A DNA stretch of 64,000 nucleotides from Syntrophales bacterium (GTDB lineage Bacteria > Desulfobacterota > Syntrophia > Syntrophales > PHBD01), in contig OY764159.1 of the NCBI GenBank assembly GCA_963668175.1, forward strand, positions 384,001 to 448,000, given 5' to 3'. Under the pieces are notes generated by a model. The model saw only the letters and a list, made by a program, of their open reading frames with translations. It was not told where the DNA came from and made no database searches. The position numbers and the translations under genes are program-made. Shown here in pieces: positions 4,401-60,192 of the stretch. Every line of letters begins with the position of its first letter. The first letter of the stretch is position 1.

Positions 4401-4561
4401 TCTTCAATCCCTTCTTCACCAAGAAGAGTTTCGGCACGGGACTGGGTTTGAGTCAGGTCAAAAAAATCATTGACCTTCATCAGGGAAGCATAGAGATTGC
4501 GAGCAAGAAAGGGACCGGCACCAGCGTAACCGTGACGCTCCCCATCGAATCAACCCCTTAA
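1484..4561 (+). CDS. Membrane sensor histidine kinase (Cache + 3 PAS + HisKA/HATPase), NtrB/AtoS-like
   Basis: Two TM helices flank a periplasmic domain; H-box AHEIRNPL, N-box NLYRNA, DNGCGI, FNPFFT, GTGLGL. Confidence 0.95.
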   Translation: MEDSSHNKRKGFFPISASLSIWLTTITIIVLILLLAITINRSREKELVADFCQQQTSLAKGAAAGIEDLVIGVEKSMILLSRLTITRGDLYREKSMTSMRAIYDDLEGKVSFIAETDKNGIVLTGYPEAILEEIKGQDFSRYPFFQDIRRTRSPDIGPSPAIVHLKDKVPAAGLKSIIVGAPQLSAGREFAGTIFTTLSLNTTIDRYVKPIKDNPTNEYWVIDDTGILVEHPNAALVGKNINAIEFFDETGRIRLDDLVKNGKEGCFECRMRKGRNAFEKNLFAYAPIHVGHETWYIVVVTPYEKVVAMIRRTFTHTMFIAFGLIVVVVIASFTIIGAGRRRTRIDAELKRLRERESWQEQLIREKRTIEGIIAGSPIPTFVIDKEHKVILWNRACAELTGVGSQDIIGTDKHSVPFYGAQKRPLIADLIIDQDVGGLEKFYSDKRIRKSEKVQGAYEAMDYYENLGGMQRYLYFLAAPILDEKGEIIAAIETLQDMSGEEAMSQSLRESQEQLLREKKTIEGIIEGSPIPTFVVNKEHKVILWNRACAELTGLEAKDMINTDKQYIPFYRNKRSILADLIIDQDIEGLTKYYGTKRVKKSETVEGAYEAMDFYQNLGGKSRYLFFLASPIYDEKGEIVAAIETLQDVTHEKEMARNLQEYAETLENEVTENVTLRQEIESLYNYLQSIVESSPDTLFDISSDGIINYISRDLKGKNRFASDQIKGKHFTEVIDQEHRDVIISMWENAKKGIYKPYEIEVRKDDDTVMNLLITCRPVAKTDRYVVVQRDITEFKNLEKKFYESQKLAAIGQLSAGIAHEIRNPLSSIKMSLQILDKRMQPTGNDQKRFQIAQREVEHLEELVNDVLIYAKPADPVKEKSNLQSILEHALAMAEKSIIDKHIHVQLESADMPLVSVDAAMIGQAFLNLYRNAVDAMETGGTLSISAHLSASNGSVSITVRDNGCGIDEQDLGHLFNPFFTKKSFGTGLGLSQVKKIIDLHQGSIEIASKKGTGTSVTVTLPIESTP
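2558..3469 (+). repeat. Intragenic tandem duplication of a PAS module (456-nt period)
   Basis: QEQLIREKRTIEGIIAGSPIPTFVIDKEHKVILWNRACAELTG from 2558 versus QEQLLREKKTIEGIIEGSPIPTFVVNKEHKVILWNRACAELTG from 3014. Confidence 0.9.
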
Positions 4562-4573
4562 CAAGGATATGAC

Positions 4574-5956
4574 ATGTCCAACATTCTCGTGATCGACGAC
4601 GACAGTTCCATCAGGGAAACGCTTGACCTGTATCTCGCGGAAGAAGGATACAAGGTGTTCACCGCCAAGGATGGTACGGAAGGGCTCGACATGTTCGTCC
4701 AGAAATCGCCCGACGTCGTGATTCTCGACATACGCCTGCCGGACATCGACGGATTCACCGTCCTTGAGGACCTGCGGGAAGAGAATGAAAATGTCAAGGT
4801 CATCATGATCACGGCGCATCACGACATGGAATCCACGATCAAGGCCATGAAGGGGGGGGCCTTCGATTACATCCACAAGCCGGTGAACGTCGACGAACTC
4901 GATCTGGCCATCAAGAAGGCCCTGAAGGCCCTCGAGATGGAAAAGAAGATCGACGGTCTGCTCATGGAACCGTCCCGGCAGTTCAAGGTCGGCGACATTA
5001 TAGGCTCCGGACGCGAGATGAGGGAAGTGTTCAAGACGATCGGGGTCGTATCCCAGAGCCGGACGACCGTCCTTATCCTGGGCGAAAGCGGAACGGGCAA
5101 GGAGCTCATCGCCAAGGTCATTCATCACAACACGTCCCGGGACGAACCCTACATCGCCATCAACTGCTCCGCCATCGTGGAAACCCTCCTCGAATCGGAG
5201 CTTTTCGGGCACGAGAAAGGATCCTTTACCGGCGCCGTCACAAAAAAGCTGGGAAAATTCGAGCAGGCCCGTTATGGAACCGTTTTTCTCGATGAAATCA
5301 GTGAAATGTCCCTGAACCTCCAGGCGAAGCTCCTCCGCGTCCTGCAGGAACTGGAATTTGAACGGGTGGGGGGAAAGGACCGAATCCGCGTCAACGCGAG
5401 AATCATCGCGGCGACCAATAAAGACCTCAAGGCTATGGTACAGGAAGGCAGGTTCCGGGACGATCTCTATTACCGCCTGAATATCGTCTCCATCCGTATA
5501 CCGCCTCTCCGTGAGCGAAGAGAGGACATCCCCATGTTGGTCGAGTATCTTTTGGCCAAGATCAACCGCGACCTCCATAAGCGCGTGCTCGGCATAGCCG
5601 ACGATATGATGGACATCTTCATGAAATACCCCTGGCCGGGCAACGTGCGCGAGTTGGAGAACCTCCTCGTCCGGGCGGTCGTGGTAACGAAGAGCCAGAT
5701 CCTGGGCAAGAACGACTTCCCCGAACTGTCCATGAGCGGCACGGAAACCGCCGAGAAGAAACTTTCGGCGGCGGACGACTCCAGCGCCGCCGGGAAATGG
5801 CTGACGCTCGATGAAGTGGAAGAGAGACACATCCGTAAAATCATCAGCGAGGCCGGAGGAAAGAACAAGGGAGAATTGTGCGAGATACTGGGCATTTCCC
5901 GGCCCACCTTAGAACGCAAGCTCGAAAAATACGGCATCCATTTCGAACGGGAGTGA
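4574..5956 (+). CDS. Sigma-54-dependent response regulator (REC-AAA+-HTH, NtrC family)
   Basis: REC domain (VIDDD, LDIRLPD), Walker A GESGTGKE, ESELFGHEKGSFTGA, WPGNVRELEN, C-terminal HTH. Confidence 0.96.
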   Translation: MSNILVIDDDSSIRETLDLYLAEEGYKVFTAKDGTEGLDMFVQKSPDVVILDIRLPDIDGFTVLEDLREENENVKVIMITAHHDMESTIKAMKGGAFDYIHKPVNVDELDLAIKKALKALEMEKKIDGLLMEPSRQFKVGDIIGSGREMREVFKTIGVVSQSRTTVLILGESGTGKELIAKVIHHNTSRDEPYIAINCSAIVETLLESELFGHEKGSFTGAVTKKLGKFEQARYGTVFLDEISEMSLNLQAKLLRVLQELEFERVGGKDRIRVNARIIAATNKDLKAMVQEGRFRDDLYYRLNIVSIRIPPLRERREDIPMLVEYLLAKINRDLHKRVLGIADDMMDIFMKYPWPGNVRELENLLVRAVVVTKSQILGKNDFPELSMSGTETAEKKLSAADDSSAAGKWLTLDEVEERHIRKIISEAGGKNKGELCEILGISRPTLERKLEKYGIHFERE

Positions 5957-11319: not shown

Positions 11320-12609
11320 CTATTTCCGGTAATCGAAGACGCGTTTGGACTTTCTTTCCGTCCTGGGAAGAGCCTGGTAGTCGACGATTTCGACGACGGC
11401 GCTCACCAGAGTTTCTTTTCTGATGTCCCTTTCGAGCTTCTTGGCCGTTGTTGCGTCGGCGGAAACGTCGCCTCCTTCGACACGCTCCACCTTGATCTTC
11501 ATATAATCTTTGCCGTCGGCTTCATGATCCAGATGGATCTGGAATTCGCTGCCGATCCCCTGCTGGCGGGAGAGAATCTCGTCGATGTGGCTCGGGTAGA
11601 TGTTGACGCCCCGGACGATGAACATATCGTCGGACCGGCCGACGATCTTCCCATGCCTGGGCAACGGCGAACCGCAGGGACACTCGCCCGGGATGGCCCG
11701 CGTCAGATCACGGGAACGGTAGCGGACGAGCGGCGCCCCCTCTTTGCGGAGCGTCGTATAGACCATTTCGCCCACTTCGCCCTCGGGAACGGGTTCGAGG
11801 GTGTCGGGATCAAGAATCTCCAGGATATAGTAATCGGCCCAGTAGTGAATCCCCTGGTGATGGATACAGTCCAATCCCGTTCCCGGACCGTAGACTTCCG
11901 TGAGTCCGGGGATATCGAAGGCATGCTCCGCTCCCAGAAGGTCCTTGATCCGTTTCGCCATGGCCTCACTGGTCCGTTCCGCGCCGAAGATGGCCTTCTT
12001 GACCTTGATGGCGTCCCTCATGCCTCTCCTGTCGACTTCCTCGGCCAGCAGAAGGGCCATAGATGCCGTGCAGCAAAGGACAGTCGTTTCAAAATCGACC
12101 AAGAACTGGAGCTGCATGTCTATGTTACCGGGACCGGCGGGTATAGCCAGGGCGCCGAACCGCTCACAGCCGAGCTGAAATCCCACCCCGGCGGTCCATA
12201 CGCCGTAGCCCACGCAGATCTGTACCCGGTCGTCCGGCGACAGGTCGGCAATCTCATAGCACCGGGCAAACATATTCGCCCAGTCGTCGATATCCTTCTG
12301 CGTATAGACCATCACCTTCCGCTTGCCCGTCGTTCCAGATGAGGCGTGGAGCCTGACGATATCCGTGAGAGGGACCGACAGAAGCGGCCAGGGGTAGTCT
12401 GCCTGGAGGTCCTGGGCGGTCACGAACGGCAATTTGCGCAGATCGTCCAGGCTTTTTATGTCTTCCGGTTTTACGCCGGCCTCATCGAATCTTTTCCGAT
12501 AGAACGGCGACCCCTGGTAGGCATGTTTCACCGTCCATTTAAGTCCTTCCAACTGGATGCCGGCGAGTTCGTCACGATTTTTCCAGGCCGGCAAAAACGA
12601 TTTTTTCAT
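11320..12609 (-). CDS. paaK: Phenylacetate-CoA ligase family aryl-CoA ligase
   Basis: HASSGTTG, GLTEVYGPG, YRSRDLT, GRSDDMFIVRGVNIYPS. Confidence 0.9.
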   Translation of the reverse strand: MKKSFLPAWKNRDELAGIQLEGLKWTVKHAYQGSPFYRKRFDEAGVKPEDIKSLDDLRKLPFVTAQDLQADYPWPLLSVPLTDIVRLHASSGTTGKRKVMVYTQKDIDDWANMFARCYEIADLSPDDRVQICVGYGVWTAGVGFQLGCERFGALAIPAGPGNIDMQLQFLVDFETTVLCCTASMALLLAEEVDRRGMRDAIKVKKAIFGAERTSEAMAKRIKDLLGAEHAFDIPGLTEVYGPGTGLDCIHHQGIHYWADYYILEILDPDTLEPVPEGEVGEMVYTTLRKEGAPLVRYRSRDLTRAIPGECPCGSPLPRHGKIVGRSDDMFIVRGVNIYPSHIDEILSRQQGIGSEFQIHLDHEADGKDYMKIKVERVEGGDVSADATTAKKLERDIRKETLVSAVVEIVDYQALPRTERKSKRVFDYRK

Positions 12610-12692: not shown

Positions 12693-12737
12693 AAAAAAAA
12701 GGGTGCATCGCCATACGCAGGCTTGATGCACCCTTTT
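12693..12737 (-). terminator. Intrinsic terminator after the glutamate-synthase-like gene
   Basis: AAAAGGGTGCATC...GATGCACCCTTTT hairpin; 8-A run on the plus strand gives the U tail on the minus strand. Confidence 0.8.
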
Positions 12738-12756
12738 GTCTTCTATAGATGGTTAA

Positions 12757-14346
12757 TTATCCGGCCAGAATTTTCTTGGCTTCTTTGAGATACGCATCCA
12801 TGACGTAGGGAATGCCGGAGATCTTTCCCGCTTCTTCCGTCAACGCCACGAGGTCTTTACGGCCGACAAGGGACAGATTGAAGTTCCTGCTGCCCGCCAT
12901 CAACTGCTGGAGGCCGATTTTGAATTTCTGGCTGAAGGTATAGATACCCAAAGCGCCGAGGGGGATGTCTTTTACTTCCTTGCCGTATTTTTTCTTCAGT
13001 TCCTCGTAGCAGACAAATATCTCTTCGACCGAATTGCCGTACTTAGAGACCGTCTTGGGCAGTTTGCCGGCCTTTATCCATTCGCCGATATTCTTGCCGA
13101 CCATGCCCGGAATCATCAATGCCCGGCCCATACACACGGCCTTCACATAGGGGGCGCCCATGGCAATGGCCTTGAAGACGCCGTCTTCCGTCGAAAATCC
13201 GCCGGCAAAGGCGATATCCGGCACACGGACCTTTTTCTTTCGCAATTCCTCGCAGAACTGATAGGTCAGGCTGTGGAGATAGAAGCTCGGAATGCCCCAT
13301 TCATTCATCATCGGCCAGGGACTCATCCCCGTTCCGCCGGGCGCCCCGTCGATCGTCAGAAGGTCGATGTTGGCATCGGCGCAGAAGCGAATCGCCATGG
13401 CCAGTTCAACCGCTGAATAGGCACCGGTCTTGAGTGTGACTCTCTTGAAACCGATCTTCCGGAGCCGGGCGACTTCAGCCATGAAGCCTTCCTTGGTGAC
13501 AAAACCCAGCCGGGAGTGGCGCTCGAATTCTTTAATCGCCCCGTCTTTGTAAGCGGCCTTGATTTCCGGCAGTGTCGGATCGGGCAGAACAATGTAGCCT
13601 CTCCTTTTCAACTCCTGAGCCCTCTCGAGGCTATTGACCTTAATCTCGCCGCCGATGTTCTTGGCTCCCTGCCCCCATTTCAATTCGATAGTATCCAATT
13701 TATGCTTGCTGCTGACGTACTCGGCCACACCCAACCGTGTGTCCTCGACATTCATCTGCACAAGGATTTCGCCGTAGCCTTCGTGATAACGCTTATACGT
13801 TTCGATGCGGCGGTCCATCTCCGGAGACTTCTTCACTTTGCCCTTGCTGTCGAGCTCCAGGCCGGGATCAATGCCGCAGACGTTTTCGCCGCAGACGATC
13901 GTTACACCCGAAATCGAGGCGCCGATGGCAAAGTGCTCCCAGTTTTTACGGGCAATTTCCGTCGAACCCAGGGCACCGGTAAATATAGGCGCCCGCATCT
14001 TGACCTTCTTCTTCCACCCGTATTCCGTTTCCGTGTCGACTGCGGGAAAGACGGCGGTATCGGGACCGGGTTTGACACCCTTAGGCAGCCCCTGGGCACC
14101 CACCGCATAGCCCTGAATACTCAAATGCGAGTAATCGACCGGATAATTCTTGTCGGCCCCGGCGGTCATTTCCCCGAAACCGATCGGGTAGATGACTTCA
14201 CGGCCCCGGAACGAGGATAACCACAATTCACACCCACCCGTACATCCATCAACGCAGCGCGTACAAATCCCCGACATGGGAACGACACTCTTTGATCGAT
14301 TAAAGGTCCCGGTTGCCTCATTGGCGTTCGGCTGTCTAAGATTCAT
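12757..14346 (-). CDS. Stand-alone FMN-binding glutamate synthase family protein with an N-terminal Cys cluster
   Basis: ELKWGQGAK..GGE, DGAPGGTGMSP, FAGG, KAIAMGA; CTRCVDGCTGGC; no amidotransferase domain. Confidence 0.88.
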   Translation of the reverse strand: MNLRQPNANEATGTFNRSKSVVPMSGICTRCVDGCTGGCELWLSSFRGREVIYPIGFGEMTAGADKNYPVDYSHLSIQGYAVGAQGLPKGVKPGPDTAVFPAVDTETEYGWKKKVKMRAPIFTGALGSTEIARKNWEHFAIGASISGVTIVCGENVCGIDPGLELDSKGKVKKSPEMDRRIETYKRYHEGYGEILVQMNVEDTRLGVAEYVSSKHKLDTIELKWGQGAKNIGGEIKVNSLERAQELKRRGYIVLPDPTLPEIKAAYKDGAIKEFERHSRLGFVTKEGFMAEVARLRKIGFKRVTLKTGAYSAVELAMAIRFCADANIDLLTIDGAPGGTGMSPWPMMNEWGIPSFYLHSLTYQFCEELRKKKVRVPDIAFAGGFSTEDGVFKAIAMGAPYVKAVCMGRALMIPGMVGKNIGEWIKAGKLPKTVSKYGNSVEEIFVCYEELKKKYGKEVKDIPLGALGIYTFSQKFKIGLQQLMAGSRNFNLSLVGRKDLVALTEEAGKISGIPYVMDAYLKEAKKILAG

Positions 14347-30637: not shown

Positions 30638-30711
30638 TGGGGGATCGTCTAGCGGTAGGACATGGGACTCTGGATCCTAGTACCGAGGTTCGAATCCTTG
30701 TCCCCCAGCCA
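30638..30711 (+). tRNA. tRNA-Gln (CTG)
   Basis: Acceptor stem TGGGGGA/TCCCCCA, anticodon loop CT-CTG-GA, GGTTCGAATCC T-arm, encoded CCA. Confidence 0.96.
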
Positions 30712-30713
30712 TA

Positions 30714-30788
30714 GGTCCCATCGTCTAGTGGTCAGGACGCTGGCCTCTCACGCCGGAAACTCGGGTTCAAGTCCCGGTGGGACCACCA
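30714..30788 (+). tRNA. tRNA-Glu (CTC)
   Basis: Acceptor stem GGTCCCA/TGGGACC, anticodon loop CT-CTC-AC, GGTTCAAGTCC T-arm, encoded CCA. Confidence 0.96.
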
Positions 30789-52135: not shown

Positions 52136-52232
52136 AATATCAAATAAGGTGTTGCAGCTCTAGTCCCGCTTGATTATTTCCATGTTTCGTATATATTGAT
52201 TATTATTATCGTTGCAACCCCAGGAAGGCATA

Positions 52233-53393
52233 ATGAACACAGCCGGCCCTAAGAAGGACAAGCCGCTTGACGAATTGGAGGTGCTGATCAGGCGTACTAT
52301 CCACGCCGAAAAGGCAGAGATCGAACGCTTGCGGCTCGAGAATTATCTCAAGGAAAGCGAAGAACGGCTGAGAACCCAATATCGCTTTATTCCCATCCCG
52401 ACGGTGACCTGGCAGAAGAGAAAAGACGATTTTTACCTGGTGGATTACAATATCGCGGAGGAGGAATCGACCGACGGACTGGTTAAAAGCCTGGTCGGAA
52501 AGCCGGCCGCAGAGATTCATCATGATCGGCCCGACATCGTTGCCGATCTGGCCCGTTCTTATCATGAACGTACGGTTGTAAAGCGGGAGAGCCCATATCG
52601 TCTCGTGACGAAAGGATTGGACAAGTTCATTTCCTTCACTTTCGCCTATGCCCCCCCCGATCTCGTCCTCTGCCACATGGAAGACGTCACCCCGCGCAAG
52701 ACGGCCGAAGAAAAATTGCGTAAATCGGAACGGGAACTTAAAGCCCTTTCATCCAAGCTCATGAAGGTGGAAGAAAAAGAGCGGAAGCGGATCGCCAGGG
52801 AGCTCCACGACAGCATCGGACAGTATCTGACGGCCATCAAGTTCAACGCGGAAAATATTCTCACCCGGCTCAAGCTGAAAGACGAAACTACGGCCATCGA
52901 AACACTCACCGCAGGCATTCCGCTCATCCAGCAGACGATCGAAGAGGTCCGGCGGATCATGATGGACCTGCGGCCGACCATCCTGGACGACCTTGGCATC
53001 ATCGCTACGATCTCCTGGTTTTGCAGGGAGTTTCAGGCTGTCTATAATCATGTCCGCCTGGAAAAGCAGATACTGCTCGAAGAGACGCAGGTGCCCGAAC
53101 CGCTTAAAATTATTATATACAGAATCATGCAGGAGGCGATGAACAACGCGGCCAAATACAGCGGGGCCGGCCTGATCAGGATCAGGTTGAAACAGGAAAA
53201 ACTAAGGATAGAATTCGCCATCATGGACAACGGCATCGGCTTCAACGCCGGACGAAGGCATAAGGGGCTGGGCCTTATCAGCATGAGGGAACGCATCGAA
53301 GGATCCGGCGGCAGCATGACGGTTCGGACCAACGCCGGGAAGGGCACTGTCATCCGGGCATCCTGGCCGGCGAACGTCAGGTCCGATTCGTGA
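52233..53393 (+). CDS. Cytoplasmic PAS sensor kinase, HisKA_3 (NarX/UhpB) type
   Basis: ERKRIARELHDSIGQ, QEAMNNAAKY, DNGIGF, GLGLISMRER. Confidence 0.9.
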   Translation: MNTAGPKKDKPLDELEVLIRRTIHAEKAEIERLRLENYLKESEERLRTQYRFIPIPTVTWQKRKDDFYLVDYNIAEEESTDGLVKSLVGKPAAEIHHDRPDIVADLARSYHERTVVKRESPYRLVTKGLDKFISFTFAYAPPDLVLCHMEDVTPRKTAEEKLRKSERELKALSSKLMKVEEKERKRIARELHDSIGQYLTAIKFNAENILTRLKLKDETTAIETLTAGIPLIQQTIEEVRRIMMDLRPTILDDLGIIATISWFCREFQAVYNHVRLEKQILLEETQVPEPLKIIIYRIMQEAMNNAAKYSGAGLIRIRLKQEKLRIEFAIMDNGIGFNAGRRHKGLGLISMRERIEGSGGSMTVRTNAGKGTVIRASWPANVRSDS

Positions 53394-54054
53394 GGAGGCC
53401 CTTCTCCATGGCATAGGCGGTCAGGGCGGAAGCGCTGTGAAGATCCAGCTTCTTCATCAGATGGTCACGATGCTTCTCCACCGTTTTTAAACTGATGCAA
53501 AGATAGTCGGCAATTTCCCGATTTTTGTACCCTTCGGCCACCAATTTGAGAATCTCCCTTTCCCGACTAGTCAAAGAATCCCAGGAAGTTCCGGCCTTCA
53601 CGCCTTTCCTGCCGGCCAGATAACCCTCGATAACCTTTTCGGAAACGGCGGGGCTGAGATAACGTTTGCCAGCAAGGACGTTTTGCACGGCCAGAATGAG
53701 TTCCGCATGGGTGGCGTCCTTCAGGACATAGCCGTCGGCACCGGCTTCGAGGCTTGCGCGGACATATTCCTCCGTTTTGTGGACTGTGAGTACGAGTACT
53801 TTCGTGGCGGGAGACAGCCTCTTGACTTCCCTGATGGCTTCCATCCCGTTCATTCTGGGCATGGAAAGGTCCATCAACATGAGATCGGGGGTTAATTGCC
53901 GGGCATAGCGAATGGCCTCGCGGCCGTCTTCGGCCTCACCGACAACGAGCAGTTCCGGATGGGAAGAGAGCAGCGCCCGCAGGCCCTCCCGAACAATCGT
54001 GTGGTCTTCGACGATGACAATCCTTTTGGATGGATTCGAAGCCTGGTCGTCCAT
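53377..54054 (-). CDS. NarL/LuxR-family response regulator
   Basis: VEDHTIVREG, MDLSMP, LTSREREIL, TVEKHR. Confidence 0.93.
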   Translation of the reverse strand: MDDQASNPSKRIVIVEDHTIVREGLRALLSSHPELLVVGEAEDGREAIRYARQLTPDLMLMDLSMPRMNGMEAIREVKRLSPATKVLVLTVHKTEEYVRASLEAGADGYVLKDATHAELILAVQNVLAGKRYLSPAVSEKVIEGYLAGRKGVKAGTSWDSLTSREREILKLVAEGYKNREIADYLCISLKTVEKHRDHLMKKLDLHSASALTAYAMEKGLLTNRT

Positions 54055-54276
54055 AGTCCCTGCCGACGAATGATCAACCGTATCAAGCCAACCCGGTGAA
54101 CGCCCTATTGTCTATCACGCCTTGGCAGATGAGTAAAGGAAGATCCTCCGGCTGATCTGATCCAAAACTTTTATGACGAACGATCTTTCCGCCTTTTGAT
54201 CGCAGCAAATAAAAAGCTTGCTTTTTTCTTTTCATTCATATAGGCACAAGTTAAAATATAACTAACGGTATTCATC

Positions 54277-54363
54277 ATGTTTTTTAAGAACACGATAAAG
54301 ATGACAAGCTGGTGGTGGCGCAGCGTACATATGGGGAGGTGCGGACTGGACTGCTGCCGTTAA
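54277..54363 (+). CDS. Trp-rich attenuator leader peptide (TrpL-like)
   Basis: MFFKNTIKMTSWWWRSVHMGRCGLDCCR* (or from ATG 54301); three consecutive TGG codons at 54310-54318; stop 23 nt before the terminator. Confidence 0.85.
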   Translation: MFFKNTIKMTSWWWRSVHMGRCGLDCCR

Positions 54364-54386
54364 ATACACGATAAAGAGACGCTTAG

Positions 54387-54423
54387 AAGCCGCGGGCAGT
54401 TAACAGCTCCCGCGGCTTTTTTT
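54387..54423 (+). terminator. Attenuator intrinsic terminator upstream of iorA
   Basis: AAGCCGCGGG-cagttaacagct-CCCGCGGCTT, T-run 54417-54423; 23 nt before the iorA ATG. Confidence 0.9.
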
Positions 54424-54446
54424 ATTCATCCAGGAGAATTGAGGTC

Positions 54447-56282
54447 ATGAACACAGAAGGAGAAAGAATTTTGATGGGCAATGAAGCCATTGGCCGGGGG
54501 CTTCTCGAAAACGGCTGCGGTCTTGTAGCCTCCTATCCGGGTACGCCGGCGTCGGAAATTCTGGCGTCGGCCGTCGACTTTGCCGGGGAGACCAAAACCC
54601 CGATCCATCTCGAATGGTCCGTCAACGAAAAGGTGGCCTTCGAAGTCGCTCTGGCATACAGCTATACGGGGAAACGAGCGGCCGTAGCCATGAAGCAGGT
54701 CGGATTGAATGTGGCATCCGATCCGGTCACGCGTGCCGCCTATCTGGGCACCAAAGGGGGGCTCGTGCTCGTTGTGGCGGACGATCCGGGCCCGCACAGC
54801 TCGCAGACCGAGCAGGACAGCCGCCTGTTTGCCCTTTTCGCGAAAATACCGGTTTTCGATCCCGCCAGTCCGAAAGAGGCAGGCGAGATGGTCAGGGAAG
54901 CCTTCGCCTTATCGGAACGATACGAGATACCCGTCATGCTCCGGCCGACGACACGGGTATGCCACGCCCGTCAAAACGTGCCCTGTACAGCGCCTGAGGC
55001 GTCCAAAAAGAGTGCACGATTCGAGAAAAATGTCAGCCGCTGGGTGGCCACGCCACAATTTCTCCAAACCCTCCATCGCGAACTGAACGAAAAACTCGAT
55101 GCCATCGGAGGCGATACCCTCTTTTATCCGCATCATATCCCGGGGGACGGAACATCGGCCAACGGCTGCATCGTGGCATCGGGCGTTGCCTACGCCCATG
55201 CATTCGATATTATGAATGATATGAGGTTAATCGGCAAGGTCGATCTCTATCAGGTCCGCATGCCCTATCCTCTAAATAAAGCGTTCATTGGCGACGTCCT
55301 GTCACGTTACGAAAAGGTTCTCGTCCTGGAAGAAACCGACGCGGTCATAGAGCTTCAACTGGGCGACCGCAGGATAACGGGCCGGCTATCGGGCCATGTT
55401 CCCCGCCAGGGCGAACTGACGCCGGACGTTGTCGAAGACATCCTGCGCGCTTTTCTTGAGATGCCCGCCGCCGCGGCAGCACCGCAGCCGAAGGCCAAGG
55501 GCAGACGGCCGTCGCTGTGCGCGGGCTGCGGCCATCGGGCGGCTTTCTATGCGATAAAGGAGACATTCCCCGACGGTATCTTCCCCAGCGACATCGGCTG
55601 TTACACCCTGGGCATGAATTTCGGAGCCGTCGATACGTGCCACTGCATGGGGGCCTGCATCAGCCAAGGCGCAGGATTTTATCGCGCTTTTGCACAGGAT
55701 GGCCTCACGATCCCCACGACCGTCGTCACGATCGGCGATTCTACATTCTTCCACGCCGGCATCCCCGGCCTGATCAACGCGGTCATTCAGAGGGCAAGAT
55801 TTATTCTGGTGATCCTCGATAATGGAACGACCGCCATGACGGGTCACCAGCCGACGCCGCAGTCCGGGCGGATGGCCGACGGCCGTCCCGGCAAGCAGGT
55901 CATGATCCCGGAACTGCTCAAGGCCTGCGGTATCGAATTCTTGAAGGAATGTGATGCTTACGATGTCGATCTCCTGAAGGAAAACCTTCGGGACGCCGAC
56001 CGGTTCACTCGCAGCGAGAAGGGCGGTGTCGCCGTCATCATCGCGCGGCATCCCTGTATCGTCGGCAAGGCCGCCAAGAAGGGCCAGCCGGTTTACACGA
56101 TGAGCATCACCGACGACTGTATGGCCTGCAGGGCCTGCATCGATCATTTTGAATGCCCGGCCATCGCCTTCGATGAAGAACAGGAGAAGGCGGTCATCGA
56201 TCAGAATTTCTGTATCGGCTGCGGCGTCTGCCGGCACGTCTGTCCGGTGGAGGCCATTGTGGCGGAAGGAGGAGTCCAGTGA
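54447..56282 (+). CDS. iorA: Indolepyruvate:ferredoxin oxidoreductase alpha subunit
   Basis: YPGTPASEI, WSVNEKVAFE, MKQVGLNVA, SSQTEQDSR, CAGCGHR, DIGCYTLG, GDSTFFHAG..DNGTTAMTG, C-terminal ferredoxin Cys motifs. Confidence 0.95.
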   Translation: MNTEGERILMGNEAIGRGLLENGCGLVASYPGTPASEILASAVDFAGETKTPIHLEWSVNEKVAFEVALAYSYTGKRAAVAMKQVGLNVASDPVTRAAYLGTKGGLVLVVADDPGPHSSQTEQDSRLFALFAKIPVFDPASPKEAGEMVREAFALSERYEIPVMLRPTTRVCHARQNVPCTAPEASKKSARFEKNVSRWVATPQFLQTLHRELNEKLDAIGGDTLFYPHHIPGDGTSANGCIVASGVAYAHAFDIMNDMRLIGKVDLYQVRMPYPLNKAFIGDVLSRYEKVLVLEETDAVIELQLGDRRITGRLSGHVPRQGELTPDVVEDILRAFLEMPAAAAAPQPKAKGRRPSLCAGCGHRAAFYAIKETFPDGIFPSDIGCYTLGMNFGAVDTCHCMGACISQGAGFYRAFAQDGLTIPTTVVTIGDSTFFHAGIPGLINAVIQRARFILVILDNGTTAMTGHQPTPQSGRMADGRPGKQVMIPELLKACGIEFLKECDAYDVDLLKENLRDADRFTRSEKGGVAVIIARHPCIVGKAAKKGQPVYTMSITDDCMACRACIDHFECPAIAFDEEQEKAVIDQNFCIGCGVCRHVCPVEAIVAEGGVQ

Positions 56283-56791
56283 ATCAACAGATCGTTATCA
56301 GCGGTATCGGAGGCCAGGGTGTCCTTTTTCTGACCCGGATTATTGCGGAAGCAGCCATGGAAAAAGGGTTGCCCGTCCTGACGTCGGAAACGCACGGCAT
56401 GGCCATGCGAGGCGGCACGGTCATTTCACATGTAAAGATCGGTCCTTTTCACAGTCCTCTCATTCGCGCCGCCCAGGCTGATATCGGTTTCTTTCTCAAT
56501 GAAGCCAACCTGGACGTTCACCGGGGTTTCCTGAAGCCGGAAGGGCTGCTGTTCATCAATACACCGAAGCCGGGAGACTACCTGCACGTGGACGCCACGC
56601 GGATTGCCAAGGAAAACGGTTTCCTGGTCATCACGAATTTGGTCCTTCTCGGATTCGCCGTAAGCAGGGGCGGCCTCTTCTGCGATGCCGGCCTCGCGGA
56701 GAACGTTATCCGCAAGCTTTCTCCGGACAACCAGGTCGAATCCAACCTGCGGGGTTTTTCCCTGGGGGTTGCCGCAGGAAAAACCAATTAG
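56279..56791 (+). CDS. iorB: Indolepyruvate:ferredoxin oxidoreductase beta subunit
   Basis: GIGGQGV, SETHGMAMRGGTV..HV; GTG start overlaps the iorA stop. Confidence 0.92.
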   Translation: MNQQIVISGIGGQGVLFLTRIIAEAAMEKGLPVLTSETHGMAMRGGTVISHVKIGPFHSPLIRAAQADIGFFLNEANLDVHRGFLKPEGLLFINTPKPGDYLHVDATRIAKENGFLVITNLVLLGFAVSRGGLFCDAGLAENVIRKLSPDNQVESNLRGFSLGVAAGKTN

Positions 56792-56825: not shown

Positions 56826-57854
56826 ATGAAGGCATTGAGAATCATAAGCGGTATCTTGCTGGCCGTCATCTTTCTGTTTATCGCGGCTCCCTCTCCGTCG
56901 TCAGCCGCGGGCCCCATCAAGCTCACCTATGCAAACTTTCCCCCGGCACCGACGTTTCCCTGCGTCCAGATGGAACGCTGGGCCCGGGAAGCGGAAAAGC
57001 GCACGAACGGCCAGGTCAAGATCCAGACATTTCCGGGCGGGACGCTGCTGCCGGCCAAGAATATTTTTGACGGCGTCATTGCCGGCACCGCCGATATCGG
57101 CAACTTTGCCATGAGCTATCAGCCGGGACGTTTTCCCGTGTCGGAAGCCGTCGATCTGCCGCTCGGATTTGCAAGCGCCCGCGTAGCGAGTCTCGTTCTC
57201 TATGACATAATTGAAAAATACAGACCGAAGGAATTCGAAAAGGTCAAGGTCCTGACCGTCTTCACCTGCCCGCCGGCCGACCTGATGACAAGCAAACCGG
57301 TCAGAACCCTTGCAGATTTAAAGGGCATGGAACTTCGCTCGTCGGGCACCGGCGTCGAGGTGATCAAGGCCTTGGGCGGCATACCCATCGCCATGCCCCA
57401 GTCGGACACGCCTGAGGCGATCCAGAAGGGCATCGTCAAGGGCGTTGTTTCTTCCCTCGAAGTTTTGAAGGACCTGAATTACGCAGCTTACACCCCTTAT
57501 GCGACCGATGCCAACCTCTTCGTCGTCACCTTTGCGGTGGTCATGAACCGGGACAAATGGAATGCGCTGCCCGCCGACGTCAAAAAGACACTGGAGGCCC
57601 TGGGAAGGGAGCAGGCCGAATGGACGGGCAAATATGTCGACGGCCATGTCAAGGAAGCCCTCGCCTGGTCCAAACAGAAATACAACCACCAGCTCCTGCA
57701 GCTTTCAGCGAAAGACAAGGCGGAAATAGCTGCCCGTGTCAAGCCGATGATCGACGGCTACATCAAGAGGGTCAACGGCCAGGGGATACAAGGCGCACAA
57801 ATCATAGCCGATATCCAGTCTCTGAAACGCAAATACGAAAAAACGTCCCGATAG
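56826..57854 (+). CDS. dctP: TRAP transporter substrate-binding protein
   Basis: Signal peptide, TNGQVKIQTFPGGTL, ADLKGMELR (carboxylate-binding Arg), MNRDKWNALP; GGAGG SD. Confidence 0.92.
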   Translation: MKALRIISGILLAVIFLFIAAPSPSSAAGPIKLTYANFPPAPTFPCVQMERWAREAEKRTNGQVKIQTFPGGTLLPAKNIFDGVIAGTADIGNFAMSYQPGRFPVSEAVDLPLGFASARVASLVLYDIIEKYRPKEFEKVKVLTVFTCPPADLMTSKPVRTLADLKGMELRSSGTGVEVIKALGGIPIAMPQSDTPEAIQKGIVKGVVSSLEVLKDLNYAAYTPYATDANLFVVTFAVVMNRDKWNALPADVKKTLEALGREQAEWTGKYVDGHVKEALAWSKQKYNHQLLQLSAKDKAEIAARVKPMIDGYIKRVNGQGIQGAQIIADIQSLKRKYEKTSR

Positions 57855-57887: not shown

Positions 57888-58445
57888 ATGCATATTCTCG
57901 AAAGAATCAATTTGTACCTTAACCGTTATCTGCTCATGATCGGCGGCATCGCCGTCCTGGCCCTCATGGCCCTGGCCACGGGAAACGTCGTCCTTCGCCT
58001 TTTCCAAATGCCTTACGCGGGAACCTATGAATTCGTGTCGTTTCTCGGTGCGATCGTCACGGCTTCGGCCCTCGGCTATACGCAACTGAAAGGGGACCAC
58101 ATCATCGTCGATATCCTGTCGGATCACTTTCCCGGACCGCTGAAGAGCATCGCCGACGCCCTCTCCTCCTTTATCAGCGCCATTTTCTTCACCATCGTGT
58201 CCTGGCAGATGTTTGTCTGGGGCATGAAGCTCGCGGAATCGGGAGAGCTTTCCGAAACGCTCAAGGTGGTCTATCACCCCTATGTGTACTGCGTCGCGGT
58301 GGGTTTTGCCACACTGTCCCTAACTTGTGCGATCGACGTCATGGCCATATTGCGGAAACGCGCTCAGGTGCCCGCCGGTACAGAATCAGCGATACAGCAA
58401 TCCGGTTTGGGCTTCAGTGAAAGCCCCAGGGAGGAACGGTCATGA
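57888..58445 (+). CDS. dctQ: TRAP transporter small permease
   Basis: Four TM helices, NVVLR, HIIVD. Confidence 0.9.
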   Translation: MHILERINLYLNRYLLMIGGIAVLALMALATGNVVLRLFQMPYAGTYEFVSFLGAIVTASALGYTQLKGDHIIVDILSDHFPGPLKSIADALSSFISAIFFTIVSWQMFVWGMKLAESGELSETLKVVYHPYVYCVAVGFATLSLTCAIDVMAILRKRAQVPAGTESAIQQSGLGFSESPREERS

Positions 58446-59749
58446 GCGAATCCATGGTAGGCGTTATCGGCATCCTGGTCATGTTTGCCACCTTGTTTTT
58501 CCTGAGGATACCGGCCGGCTTTACCATGGCCGTCGTCGGCTTTTTCGGAATTGCCTACGTGACATCCTTCCAGGCCGCCTTCGGCATGATCGGCTCCGAG
58601 ATGTGGAGTATCTTCTCCAACTACGGCCTGACGGTTATTCCGATGTTCATTCTGGTCGGCGAAATCGTGCATTACGCCGGCTACAATGACAGCCTCTATC
58701 ATGCCACCCACCGGTGGTTCGGACATTTCCGCGGGGGCCTGGCCATTACGACGATCATGGCTTCGGCGGCGTTTTCCGCCATCAGCGGCTCCAACACGGC
58801 CACGGCGGCAACCATGAGCAAAGTGGCCATCCCGGCCATGAAGAAATACAACTACCACCCCATCCTGAATGCAGGTTCCGTTGCTGCAGGAGCCACGCTG
58901 GGCGTTCTGATCCCGCCCAGTATCGTCCTCGTCGTTTACGGCCTCTATACGGGGCAGTCCATCGGCAAGCTATTCTTCGGCAACGTCATCCCCAGCGCAA
59001 TTCTCACCGTTTTGATTGCTGCGACCGTCTTTGCCATTTGCGCCCGTCATCCCGATTGGGGACCGGCAGCGGAGAAAAGCACCTGGAAGGAAAGGTTCAA
59101 GGCCCTCCCGGAAGCACTGGACATATTAGTCCTTTTTATCATTATCATGTATGCCCTCTTTACGGGCGTCGTTACGGCGACGGAAGCGGCAGCCCTCAGC
59201 TGCACCCTGGCGCTGATCATCAGCCTGGCCCGCCGGAAGCTCACCTGGGCGGCCTTTCTGTCGTCCATCGAAGATACACTTCGCATCTCCTGCCTGATCT
59301 TCATGATTATCGCCGGGGCCGTTATCTTCGGAAGATTTTTGACGATATCCCGTCTGCCTTATGAGGTCGCATCCTGGATCGGGTCCCTGGCCATGCCCAA
59401 CTGGCTGCTTCTGTCCGTCATCCTCTGCTGCTACATCGTCGGCGGCTGCATCATGGACGCCCTTGCTTTTCTCCTCATATCCCTGCCCATATTCTATCCG
59501 ATCGTGATCGGTATGGGGTACGACCCGATCTGGTTCGGACAGATCATCACGATTGTTACGACCATGGGCTCCATCATGCCGCCCATTGGAATATGCTGCT
59601 ATGTCGTCCACGGCATGGCAAAGGACATTCCCCTGGCCACCGTCTTTCGCGGCGGGTTCTACTACATCCCGTCCTACATCATCGCCATCATCCTGTTGAT
59701 GCTTTCGCCCTATTGGACGGTCTTGGTTTTGTCGGACCTGGTTAAATAG
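58442..59749 (+). CDS. dctM: TRAP transporter large permease
   Basis: VIPMFIL, AISGSNTATA, LIPPSI, TATEAAA, MPPIG. Confidence 0.93.
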   Translation: MSESMVGVIGILVMFATLFFLRIPAGFTMAVVGFFGIAYVTSFQAAFGMIGSEMWSIFSNYGLTVIPMFILVGEIVHYAGYNDSLYHATHRWFGHFRGGLAITTIMASAAFSAISGSNTATAATMSKVAIPAMKKYNYHPILNAGSVAAGATLGVLIPPSIVLVVYGLYTGQSIGKLFFGNVIPSAILTVLIAATVFAICARHPDWGPAAEKSTWKERFKALPEALDILVLFIIIMYALFTGVVTATEAAALSCTLALIISLARRKLTWAAFLSSIEDTLRISCLIFMIIAGAVIFGRFLTISRLPYEVASWIGSLAMPNWLLLSVILCCYIVGGCIMDALAFLLISLPIFYPIVIGMGYDPIWFGQIITIVTTMGSIMPPIGICCYVVHGMAKDIPLATVFRGGFYYIPSYIIAIILLMLSPYWTVLVLSDLVK

Positions 59750-59847
59750 ATCACGTGACGCGCCGACCGACATATAAGGGTTGATCCATTATCGCTTATT
59801 TGATACATGATTGTATCATTGAGTCATTTTCAACTCGAAGGACGGCC

Positions 59848-60192
59848 ATGAACGATCTACTGGAAAGCCGGGATGAAGAGATTGTGGGCGATATGCACCG
59901 GGCGGCGCAGACGATTGTGGAATTCACGGTAGGCGTCAGTTTCGAGCAGTTTATCAGCGACCGGAAACTGCAATTTGCCCTGGAGAGGTTGATCGACATC
60001 ATCGGGCAGGATGCCGTGAATGTATCGGAGGCTTTTCGCAGCCACTATGCCGATATATCCTGGCAGACGTTGATGACGCTCCGTCACGTTCTGGCCATGG
60101 AGGATGGGGCCAAGCAGGAACGCATGTGGGATCTCGTCTCCGTGCAGATACCGGAACTCGCGGCAGAACTGGAATCATTGGCGCCTTACTGA
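59848..60192 (+). CDS. HepT/DUF86-like HEPN protein with a degenerate catalytic motif
   Basis: QFALERLIDIIGQ...ISWQ..LRHVLAM fits the DUF86 pattern, but Rx4H is changed to Rx4M. Confidence 0.75.
   Translation: MNDLLESRDEEIVGDMHRAAQTIVEFTVGVSFEQFISDRKLQFALERLIDIIGQDAVNVSEAFRSHYADISWQTLMTLRHVLAMEDGAKQERMWDLVSVQIPELAAELESLAPY

Follow-up and report, generated by a model that had tools for sequence, protein, structure and literature searches.

The 64,000-nt stretch analyzed here (contig OY764159.1 of a Syntrophales bacterium, positions 384,001 to 448,000; hereafter the window) encodes on its forward strand an indolepyruvate-type oxidoreductase and a tripartite ATP-independent periplasmic (TRAP) transporter, preceded by a short tryptophan-rich leader and an intrinsic terminator. 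The genes are iorA (54447-56282), encoding the alpha subunit of the indolepyruvate-type 2-oxoacid:ferredoxin oxidoreductase (IOR; Pfam POR_N, TPP_enzyme_C and Fer4), iorB (56279-56791), encoding its beta subunit (POR), dctP (56826-57854), encoding a TRAP solute-binding protein of the aromatic/indole-acid clade (DctP), dctQ (57888-58445), encoding the small membrane subunit (DctQ), and dctM (58442-59749), encoding the large membrane subunit (DctM). For dctP, the start was moved to the ATG at 56826, which follows a GGAGG. The architecture upstream of iorA is conserved and, among the loci compared, exclusively linked to iorAB-TRAP genes.

The leader open reading frame (ORF) spans 28 codons (54277-54363, + strand; peptide MFFKNTIKMTSWWWRSVHMGRCGLDCCR*) and contains three tandem Trp codons, TGGTGGTGG, at leader codons 12-14 (54310-54318), which are the putative regulatory codons. 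The choice of the first ATG (54277) as the start is backed by the homologues, in which 10-11 codons precede the Trp run (16 in one relative, L003). In the minimum free energy (MFE) fold of the full leader, segment 1 (54307-54328) forms the 5' half of a 1:2 hairpin and has the Trp codons inside it, while segment 2 (54339-54361), which ends at the leader stop codon, is its partner or, via 54344-54357, that of the 5' arm of the terminator. The intrinsic terminator (54385-54423) consists of a 5' arm (segment 3, 54385-54401), a 3' arm (segment 4, 54405-54420) and a run of seven T (54417-54423); it is G+C-rich and folds alone at -23.9 kcal/mol. The iorA ATG (54447) follows the T-run after just 23 nt, leaving no space for a separate iorA promoter behind the terminator. 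A simple promoter and terminator scan of the window returned 0 terminator sites, presumably because its loop limit of 3-8 caused the hairpin to be missed. All of the elements cited in an earlier sequence-only reading of the window (leader ORF, three TGG codons, segments, terminator and iorA) lie where that reading had placed them, including the four quoted segments TGGCGCAG (54316-54323), CTGCTGCCG (54351-54359), GACTGCTGC (54349-54357) and GCGGGCAGTT (54392-54401).

Conservation of the leader, terminator and promoter block

Of 600 candidate stretches in a genome scan with IorA, 585 encode relatives; the 80 best loci form the basis of all counts given here (individual loci carry handles such as L001). 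The closest IorA relatives are 60-70% identical and come mostly from metagenome-assembled genomes (MAGs) titled Syntrophaceae, Syntrophales, Smithella or 'Deltaproteobacteria'. Genomic neighborhood analysis by tblastn of the operon proteins places an orthologous DctP (56-83% identity) beside iorAB in 9 of the 80 loci (L001, L002, L003, L004, L005, L015, L016, L017 and L024). A Trp-rich leader, a terminator and the promoter block precede the genes in 8/8 of these TRAP-linked relatives with usable upstream DNA, and twice in L016; L015 was left out, its contig ending about 28-43 nt before iorA. No Trp-rich or F/Y/H/C/M-rich leader with a terminator was found at any of the 53 assessable TRAP-less loci, counted as such when free of TRAP genes and flanked by 200 nt or more upstream and 1500 nt or more downstream. 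Among the 71 loci without a DctP match, 15 end too early after iorAB to exclude a TRAP transporter and 4 have less than 200 nt upstream. The core of the sequence-only reading, a TrpL-type ribosome-stalling attenuator before iorAB-dctPQM, is supported by this comparison. In the IorA tree, the leader-bearing proteins fall into three clusters with an unresolved backbone, and the locus counts are not phylogenetically independent.

Leaders were sought by small-ORF scans upstream of iorA together with direct reading of the DNA. The homologous peptides are MDIMNRMSNLWWWRSSHKGSGVRV (L001), MDSKNRTITLWWWRSSHRAKVVRVCGV (L002), MDSRKRTTDLWWWRGIHRARVVQVCGV (L017), MKAFNRLSTGWWWWQKISGGGLFGA (L004), MKAFNRLSTGWWWQEISGRGLFDA (L005), MKRQNRILTNWWWWCKIPGRGLFTA (the iorAB copy of L016), MIDIRNNYLTCWWWRRYKIR (L024) and MKNTINIKMINNGLKFWCWQWIYRRGRFVGCLKEF (L003), with MKLQNSISTNWWWWHKITGRGLFTA as the second leader of L016. 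They are 20-35 codons long, and three to four tandem Trp codons occur in 8 of the 9 leaders other than that of the window, with W-C-W-Q-W in L003; every assessable TRAP-linked locus therefore has WWW, WWWW or WCWQW upstream of its orthologous iorA. The peptides are otherwise divergent, with variable C-termini, and the Trp run alone is common to all of them. The tandem Phe codons near the start of the window leader, which the sequence-only reading had raised as a possible second sensor, are unique to the window (FF in 0 of the 9 other leaders), leaving the idea of Phe sensing unsupported. In the nine WWW/WWWW copies, the T-run ending a strong hairpin lies 55-73 nt past the leader stop, and the terminators of the leaders fold at -17 to -30 kcal/mol.

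The arrangement in L016, a Smithella MAG, separates the two gene sets. Its iorAB and dctPQM genes lie on opposite strands, about 4 kb apart, and each half has its own WWWW leader and terminator. The second leader (L016b, 12713-12864, - strand) stands before dctPQM, with its terminator 55 nt past the leader stop and the dctP start about 50 nt beyond. The leader thus tracks both gene sets and not a position, which is hard to explain unless it is regulatory. At the iorAB copy, about 267 nt (L016:5734-6000) lie between the leader terminator and iorA, versus 23-61 nt at the other loci; this stretch carries G+C-rich inverted repeats and resembles an inserted element.

A profile of the 10 leaders, run with nhmmer against the window and the 80 loci, returned only the 10 known copies (E ≤ 6e-24) and reverse-strand echoes of the terminators. 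Several other candidates were set aside. FFF ORFs in L002 precede the real leader in another reading frame, and a leader candidate in L019 lies inside a truncated gene. Small ORFs with WW in L066, L069, L073, L075 and L039 apparently fall within an upstream coding sequence, judging from the DNA, and have no terminator; a WW ORF in L025 (MPWPPTPRPRPWWASRSAGSGP) failed the scan that required a terminator and is presumed to be due to chance. The ORF MSTWWTWDSRL of L022 (1630-1670, TTG start), which lies 210 nt before iorA, is unconvincing, its hairpin being weak (-12.1). L022 is a Desulfobaccia MAG whose iorA product is 68% identical; its contig stops inside iorA, placing it among the 15 loci where a TRAP transporter cannot be excluded.

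Upstream of the leader lies a promoter-like block (54218-54246, + strand), composed of a -35-like TTGCTT (54218-54223), a 17-nt spacer and a -10-like TAGGCA (54241-54246), with an A-rich tract before it. The pattern cTTG(C/A)NT, 17 nt, TAnnnn, with the upstream A-tract, recurs 46-61 nt before the leader ATG in 10/10 leaders; the weak promoter call of the generic scan (54229-54257) differs from this conserved block. The genes upstream of the block vary by locus (response regulator, PaaK-like ligase, TetR, CoA-transferase or cupin), which indicates that the conserved unit begins at the promoter. In the window, the upstream neighbor is a LuxR-type response regulator (53377-54054, - strand), which is oriented away from the leader promoter and was not seen at the related loci. 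Together with a histidine kinase ORF of the HisKA_3 type, it occupies the region 52212-54054; the kinase ORF starts with TTG on the + strand and converges on the regulator gene, sharing 17 nt with it. On the downstream side, a HepT-like ribonuclease ORF of toxin-antitoxin type (59800-60192, + strand) begins 50 nt past dctM.

RNA pairings and the predicted switch

In the RNAalifold consensus of a MAFFT alignment of the 10 leaders, the terminator comprises 11 pairs, 6 of which show compensatory changes. All 10 full-leader MFE structures keep the terminator and leave segment 2 at least partly paired with an upstream segment, which contains or flanks the Trp codons. For the window, RNAfold predicts the 1:2 register as GGUGGUGG (54311-54318) with CUGCUGCC (54352-54359), plus CAG:CUG and CGUAC:GUGCG. 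The predicted antiterminator of the window uses GACUG (54344-54348), CUGC (54351-54354) and GC (54356-54357) on its 5' side, pairing with CAGUU (54397-54401), GCGG (54392-54395) and GC (54389-54390) on the terminator arm. Both pairings claimed by the sequence-only reading, 1:2 and 2:3, are thus predicted, in registers that differ from those it gave. Segment 2 contains the tandem GGACTGGACTGC (direct repeat GGACTG GGACTG(C), 54343-54354), which makes two arm registers possible and accounts for the difference between that reading and RNAfold.

The stalled state was modeled in 8 leaders by removing the region covered by the ribosome and ending the transcript before the 3' arm. In 8/8 of them, 7-12 nt of the terminator 5' arm pair with a segment located no more than about 30 nt from the leader stop. 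This stop-proximal segment (-29 to +4 relative to the stop codon) is the top-ranked 16-mer for pairing with the arm in 9/10 leaders and the second best in the window, and it sits where a ribosome on the stop codon would cover it. Two groups, L001/L002/L017 and L004/L005/L016, show its sequence changing together with that of the arm. In L004, L005 and L016, for example, GGUCUGUUC pairs with GAACAGA; in L001, GUGC..GUCUA.GGC pairs with GCC.UGGGCGCAC; and in L024, GGCUUGUCC pairs with GGAUGGGCC. The antiterminator duplex is matched by 0-1 of 300 shuffles for L004, L005, L016 and L016b and is marginal for L001 (19/300), and cognate arm pairing beats non-cognate pairing in two groups. An equilibrium three-state model gives more arm sequestration with the ribosome stalled than at the stop in 5/10 leaders (L003, L001, L024, L004 and L016). 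Among the MFE three-state folds computed for the window, L001, L002, L004 and L024, those of L004 and L024 switch cleanly and that of L001 mostly does.

The cores of the terminator stems are palindromic: CCGCGG in the window (54390-54395) and CCATGG in L001, L002 and L017. Segments 3 and 4 are consequently alike, and to this we attribute the ability of the Trp-codon run to pair with the arm as well, which blurs the equilibrium models. The local 3:4 hairpin should nonetheless be favored kinetically.

Proposed attenuation, competing readings and physiology

The combined architecture is probably that of a ribosome-mediated (leader-peptide) transcription attenuator of the TrpL type, gating one transcript that would run from the leader through iorA, iorB, dctP, dctQ and dctM. 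Transcription would begin at the conserved promoter, some 25 nt ahead of the leader ORF. With charged tRNA-Trp plentiful, the translating ribosome would pass the three Trp codons, reach the stop codon and cover segment 2; segments 3 and 4 would then pair, and the terminator would halt RNA polymerase 23 nt before iorA. If the leader were not translated, segments 1 and 2 would pair, and the terminator would likewise form. With charged tRNA-Trp scarce, the ribosome would stall on the Trp codons and cover segment 1, freeing segment 2 for the 5' arm of the terminator, and polymerase would read into the operon. This geometry suggests induction of the operon by tryptophan starvation. A direct block of the terminator by the ribosome, of the pyrBI type, was rejected, as the leader stop lies at least 22 nt before the hairpin.

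Several results weigh against this reading. At the window copy itself, the Shine-Dalgarno sequence is weak (it is clearer in the relatives); TGGTGGTGG occurs once on both strands of the 64-kb window, where 0.27 are expected, and at least once in 23 of 100 shuffles; the fold of the 191-nt region has z = -1.21 relative to shuffles; and the segment 2:arm duplex is equaled by 127 of 300 shuffles of segment 2. The window copy by itself is not beyond chance; the significance of the element is drawn from its conservation in the relatives. No leader family of Rfam reaches its gathering score in the window, and the Trp_leader model has no match at E ≤ 10; the sub-threshold matches at that level are Phe_leader (18.4 bits, versus 55) and His_leader (14.7 bits, versus 49). 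The antiterminator duplex is not above shuffles in L002 (84/300), L017 (115/300) or L024 (143/300), cognate arm pairing does not beat non-cognate pairing for the window, L003 or L024, and the equilibrium model is flat in two leaders (L005 and L016b) and reversed in three (the window, L002 and L017). The arm of the window pairs more strongly with the G-rich Trp-codon run (-18.5 kcal/mol) than with segment 2 (-13.9). An antiterminator is thus predicted in all 8 leaders folded in the stalled state, with significance against shuffles in 4-5 of 10 leaders, a window duplex within the range of shuffles and mixed equilibrium behavior. On the biological side, the CoA ligase that a salvage route would need lies outside the attenuated unit, either upstream of the leader promoter or kilobases away, and indolepyruvate oxidoreductase is usually regarded as catabolic. 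IorA scores 629.1 bits with NCBIfam TIGR03336 (IOR_alpha, cutoff 650.9) and IorB 184.8 bits with NF004916 (cutoff 227); both can safely be assigned to the IOR family by sequence, and scores below the equivalog cutoffs do not establish substrate specificity.

The transporter may take up aromatic or indole acids. All three components, DctP, DctQ and DctM, exceed their Pfam cutoffs, which classes the system as a TRAP transporter, and DctM also exceeds that of TIGR00786 (276.9 bits, cutoff 268.45). Structurally, the closest solved relative of DctP is 4n6d (Desal_3247; E 1e-114, 53% identity, template modeling score [TM] 0.87 to the model), followed by 4pgn/4pgp/4nap (Dde_0634; E about 1e-96, 46% identity, TM 0.80); the model covers 56838-57854 and was built from a 7-row alignment, with a mean predicted local distance difference test score of 80.5. 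The ligands in the Dde_0634 structures are presumably indole pyruvate, indole-3-acetate and D-tryptophan. The next nearest binding proteins were solved with coumarate, cinnamate and 4-hydroxyphenylacetate, or are labeled 'specific for aromatic acid ligands' (including TarP). According to a review (PMC5812351), the TRAP screen of the Enzyme Function Initiative, from which structures of this kind came, yielded 'indole acids' as new ligands.

Under a tryptophan-starvation switch, a cell short of tryptophan would make an indole- or aromatic-acid TRAP transporter together with an indolepyruvate-type ferredoxin oxidoreductase. Imported indole-3-acetate could be converted to indoleacetyl-CoA, then by reductive carboxylation to indolepyruvate, and finally to tryptophan, a route that would draw on a PaaK-like CoA ligase, for which a gene lies nearby, and would further require an aminotransferase. 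Candidate ligases exist. PaaK-like genes lie immediately upstream of the leader promoters in L016 (4170-5522, + strand), L001 (about 4432-5715, + strand) and L003 (1245-2531, + strand), and L016 has another, partial one ahead of its dctPQM leader (12941-13372 and 13398-13718, both - strand). In the window, the sole candidate aryl-CoA ligase is a PaaK-like protein (AMP-binding and AMP-binding_C_2; 11320-12609, - strand), 42 kb from the operon. Beside one of the L016 ligases lies a gene for a protein with a pair of ACT domains. A precedent for the chemistry comes from Methanococcus maripaludis, in which aryl acids feed a second pathway to aromatic amino acids (Porat et al., cited in PMC4162585); PMC4162585 treats that synthesis as running through indolepyruvate oxidoreductase. 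Tryptophan salvage from indole-3-acetate would be the simplest reading of a starvation-induced IOR coupled with an indole-acid transporter. We tentatively propose, as a possibility somewhat short of probable, that in Syntrophales-like anaerobes IOR and a dedicated indole-acid TRAP transporter form a tryptophan-starvation regulon under a lineage-specific attenuator, with the enzyme working anabolically to make tryptophan from indole-3-acetate scavenged from the community. The transporter substrate would be an indole acid by this proposal, and the anabolic direction of the enzyme is suggested by its regulation only.

The same attenuator could be real and sense tryptophan while controlling something other than biosynthetic salvage: the TRAP transporter may import tryptophan-like compounds or indolepyruvate for direct use, or the oxidoreductase may run oxidatively, yielding energy or reducing power from aromatic keto acids when amino acids are scarce. 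The oxidative direction in which the enzyme is usually described, the position of the CoA ligase outside the attenuated unit, and the fact that the closest solved binding proteins fall in a clade for which 'indole acids' in general are reported as ligands all fit such a role. Breaking down the direct keto-acid precursor of tryptophan during a tryptophan shortage would make poor regulatory sense, however, and a PaaK-like ligase gene does adjoin the leader on its upstream side in L001, L003 and L016, while in L002 and L017 one lies no more than about 5 kb away. With the aryl-acid route via this enzyme also reported for M. maripaludis (PMC4162585), we regard a non-salvage role as unlikely.

Two further explanations concern the leader itself, and both appear highly improbable. 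The nascent peptide might detect free tryptophan and stall in the manner of TnaC, so that the operon would be induced by tryptophan excess, which would suit a catabolic oxidoreductase. The enzyme family is known from tryptophan breakdown, and some non-Trp residues do recur (Asn at codon 5 in 6/10 leaders, Arg after the Trp run in 5/10). However, these recurring codons coincide with RNA segment 1, in which AACAGAC, for instance, pairs with GGUCUGUU, and the feature shared by all is a run of three to four Trp codons, a hallmark of sensors of tRNA charging. Furthermore, the number of codons after the run varies from 6 to 14, the C-termini (CCR, VRV, CGV, FGA, FDA, FTA, KIR and KEF) lack a conserved Pro ahead of the stop, and termination is intrinsic, not Rho-dependent. 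We give equally little credence to the view that the small ORF is untranslated or non-regulatory, the hairpin being a plain terminator or insulator against upstream transcription and the operon answering to a protein regulator such as the divergent LuxR-type protein (53377-54054). That view draws on the chance-level statistics and weak Shine-Dalgarno sequence of the window copy and on the two-component pair next door. Against it, none of the relatives has the response regulator and all have different genes upstream, whereas the leader, Trp run, terminator and promoter block are kept in 10/10 copies. A terminator between a conserved promoter and the first gene must also be overcome somehow, and the element is duplicated before both halves of the gene set in L016.

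If the proposed anabolic regulon is true, its switch would be the first leader-peptide attenuator known over a 2-oxoacid:ferredoxin oxidoreductase and a TRAP transporter, and it would provide evidence from regulation that bacteria have an aryl-acid route to tryptophan. The tryptophan-starvation switch would assign a function to genes whose annotation otherwise stops at the family level, implying that in slow-growing syntrophic anaerobes the enzyme serves tryptophan supply rather than breakdown and suggesting that these organisms rely on indole acids from their neighbors. The combination of promoter block, W-run leader and terminator offers a sequence signature for locating the regulon in metagenomes, and the split locus of L016 represents a natural experiment on a leader following its genes.

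Comparison with known systems

The sequence-only reading had noted no prior description of such control for IOR or TRAP genes, and the literature agrees with it to the extent covered: among full texts, no paper was found in which iorAB or a TRAP transporter is preceded by a Trp leader, with subscription journals, regulon databases and bioRxiv supplements outside this coverage, so that a prior description is possible. PMC545781 mentions none of tryptophan, attenuator, leader peptide, indolepyruvate or TRAP, and no description of Trp-leader regulation of the Dde_0634 or Desal_3247 TRAP proteins was found in the accessible literature. The two adjacent tRNA genes at 30638-30785 (+ strand) are the only Rfam matches at gathering score in the window.

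TnaC, the leader of the tryptophanase operon, has a single Trp, a conserved Asp and a C-terminal Pro, and it relieves Rho-dependent termination, giving induction at tryptophan excess. Like the present element, it is a tryptophan-linked leader peptide over non-biosynthetic genes for tryptophan metabolism and transport (PMC8429421). Whereas TnaC senses free L-Trp through the nascent chain, the element described here combines tandem Trp codons with an intrinsic terminator, and no C-terminal residue is conserved, the C-termini differing in every group and none having Pro before the stop.

The M. maripaludis route resembles the proposed physiology in that the oxidoreductase is used biosynthetically on imported aryl acids; the organism is an archaeon, and we know of no leader-peptide control or dedicated TRAP transporter associated with that route. 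The trpL of Sinorhizobium meliloti (rnTrpL small RNA, peTrpL peptide) is a Trp attenuator that likewise depends on the ribosome and yields a short terminated RNA together with a leader peptide (PMC6614838, PMC7298713). It differs in preceding trpE(G) and in the documented trans-acting roles of its RNA and peptide. The roughly 170-nt terminated leader RNA predicted here could in principle also act in trans.

The closest likeness in mechanism is to E. coli trpL, with which the element shares a short leader ORF, tandem Trp codons, mutually exclusive 1:2, 2:3 and 3:4 pairings (here predicted), an intrinsic terminator before the first gene and, as proposed, stalling at the Trp codons that leads to read-through. 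E. coli trpL has 14 codons, with Trp at positions 10-11. The leaders described here are longer (20-35 codons, with 6-14 after the Trp run) and have three to four Trp codons instead of two, and the window element has no match at E ≤ 10 to the Rfam Trp_leader model (RF00513). Unlike in E. coli, the genes that follow encode an oxidoreductase and a transporter, not trpEDCBA, and the host is a Syntrophales-like member of the Thermodesulfobacteriota. The mechanism is a textbook one; what seems to be new, within the literature covered, is its lineage and the set of genes it would regulate.

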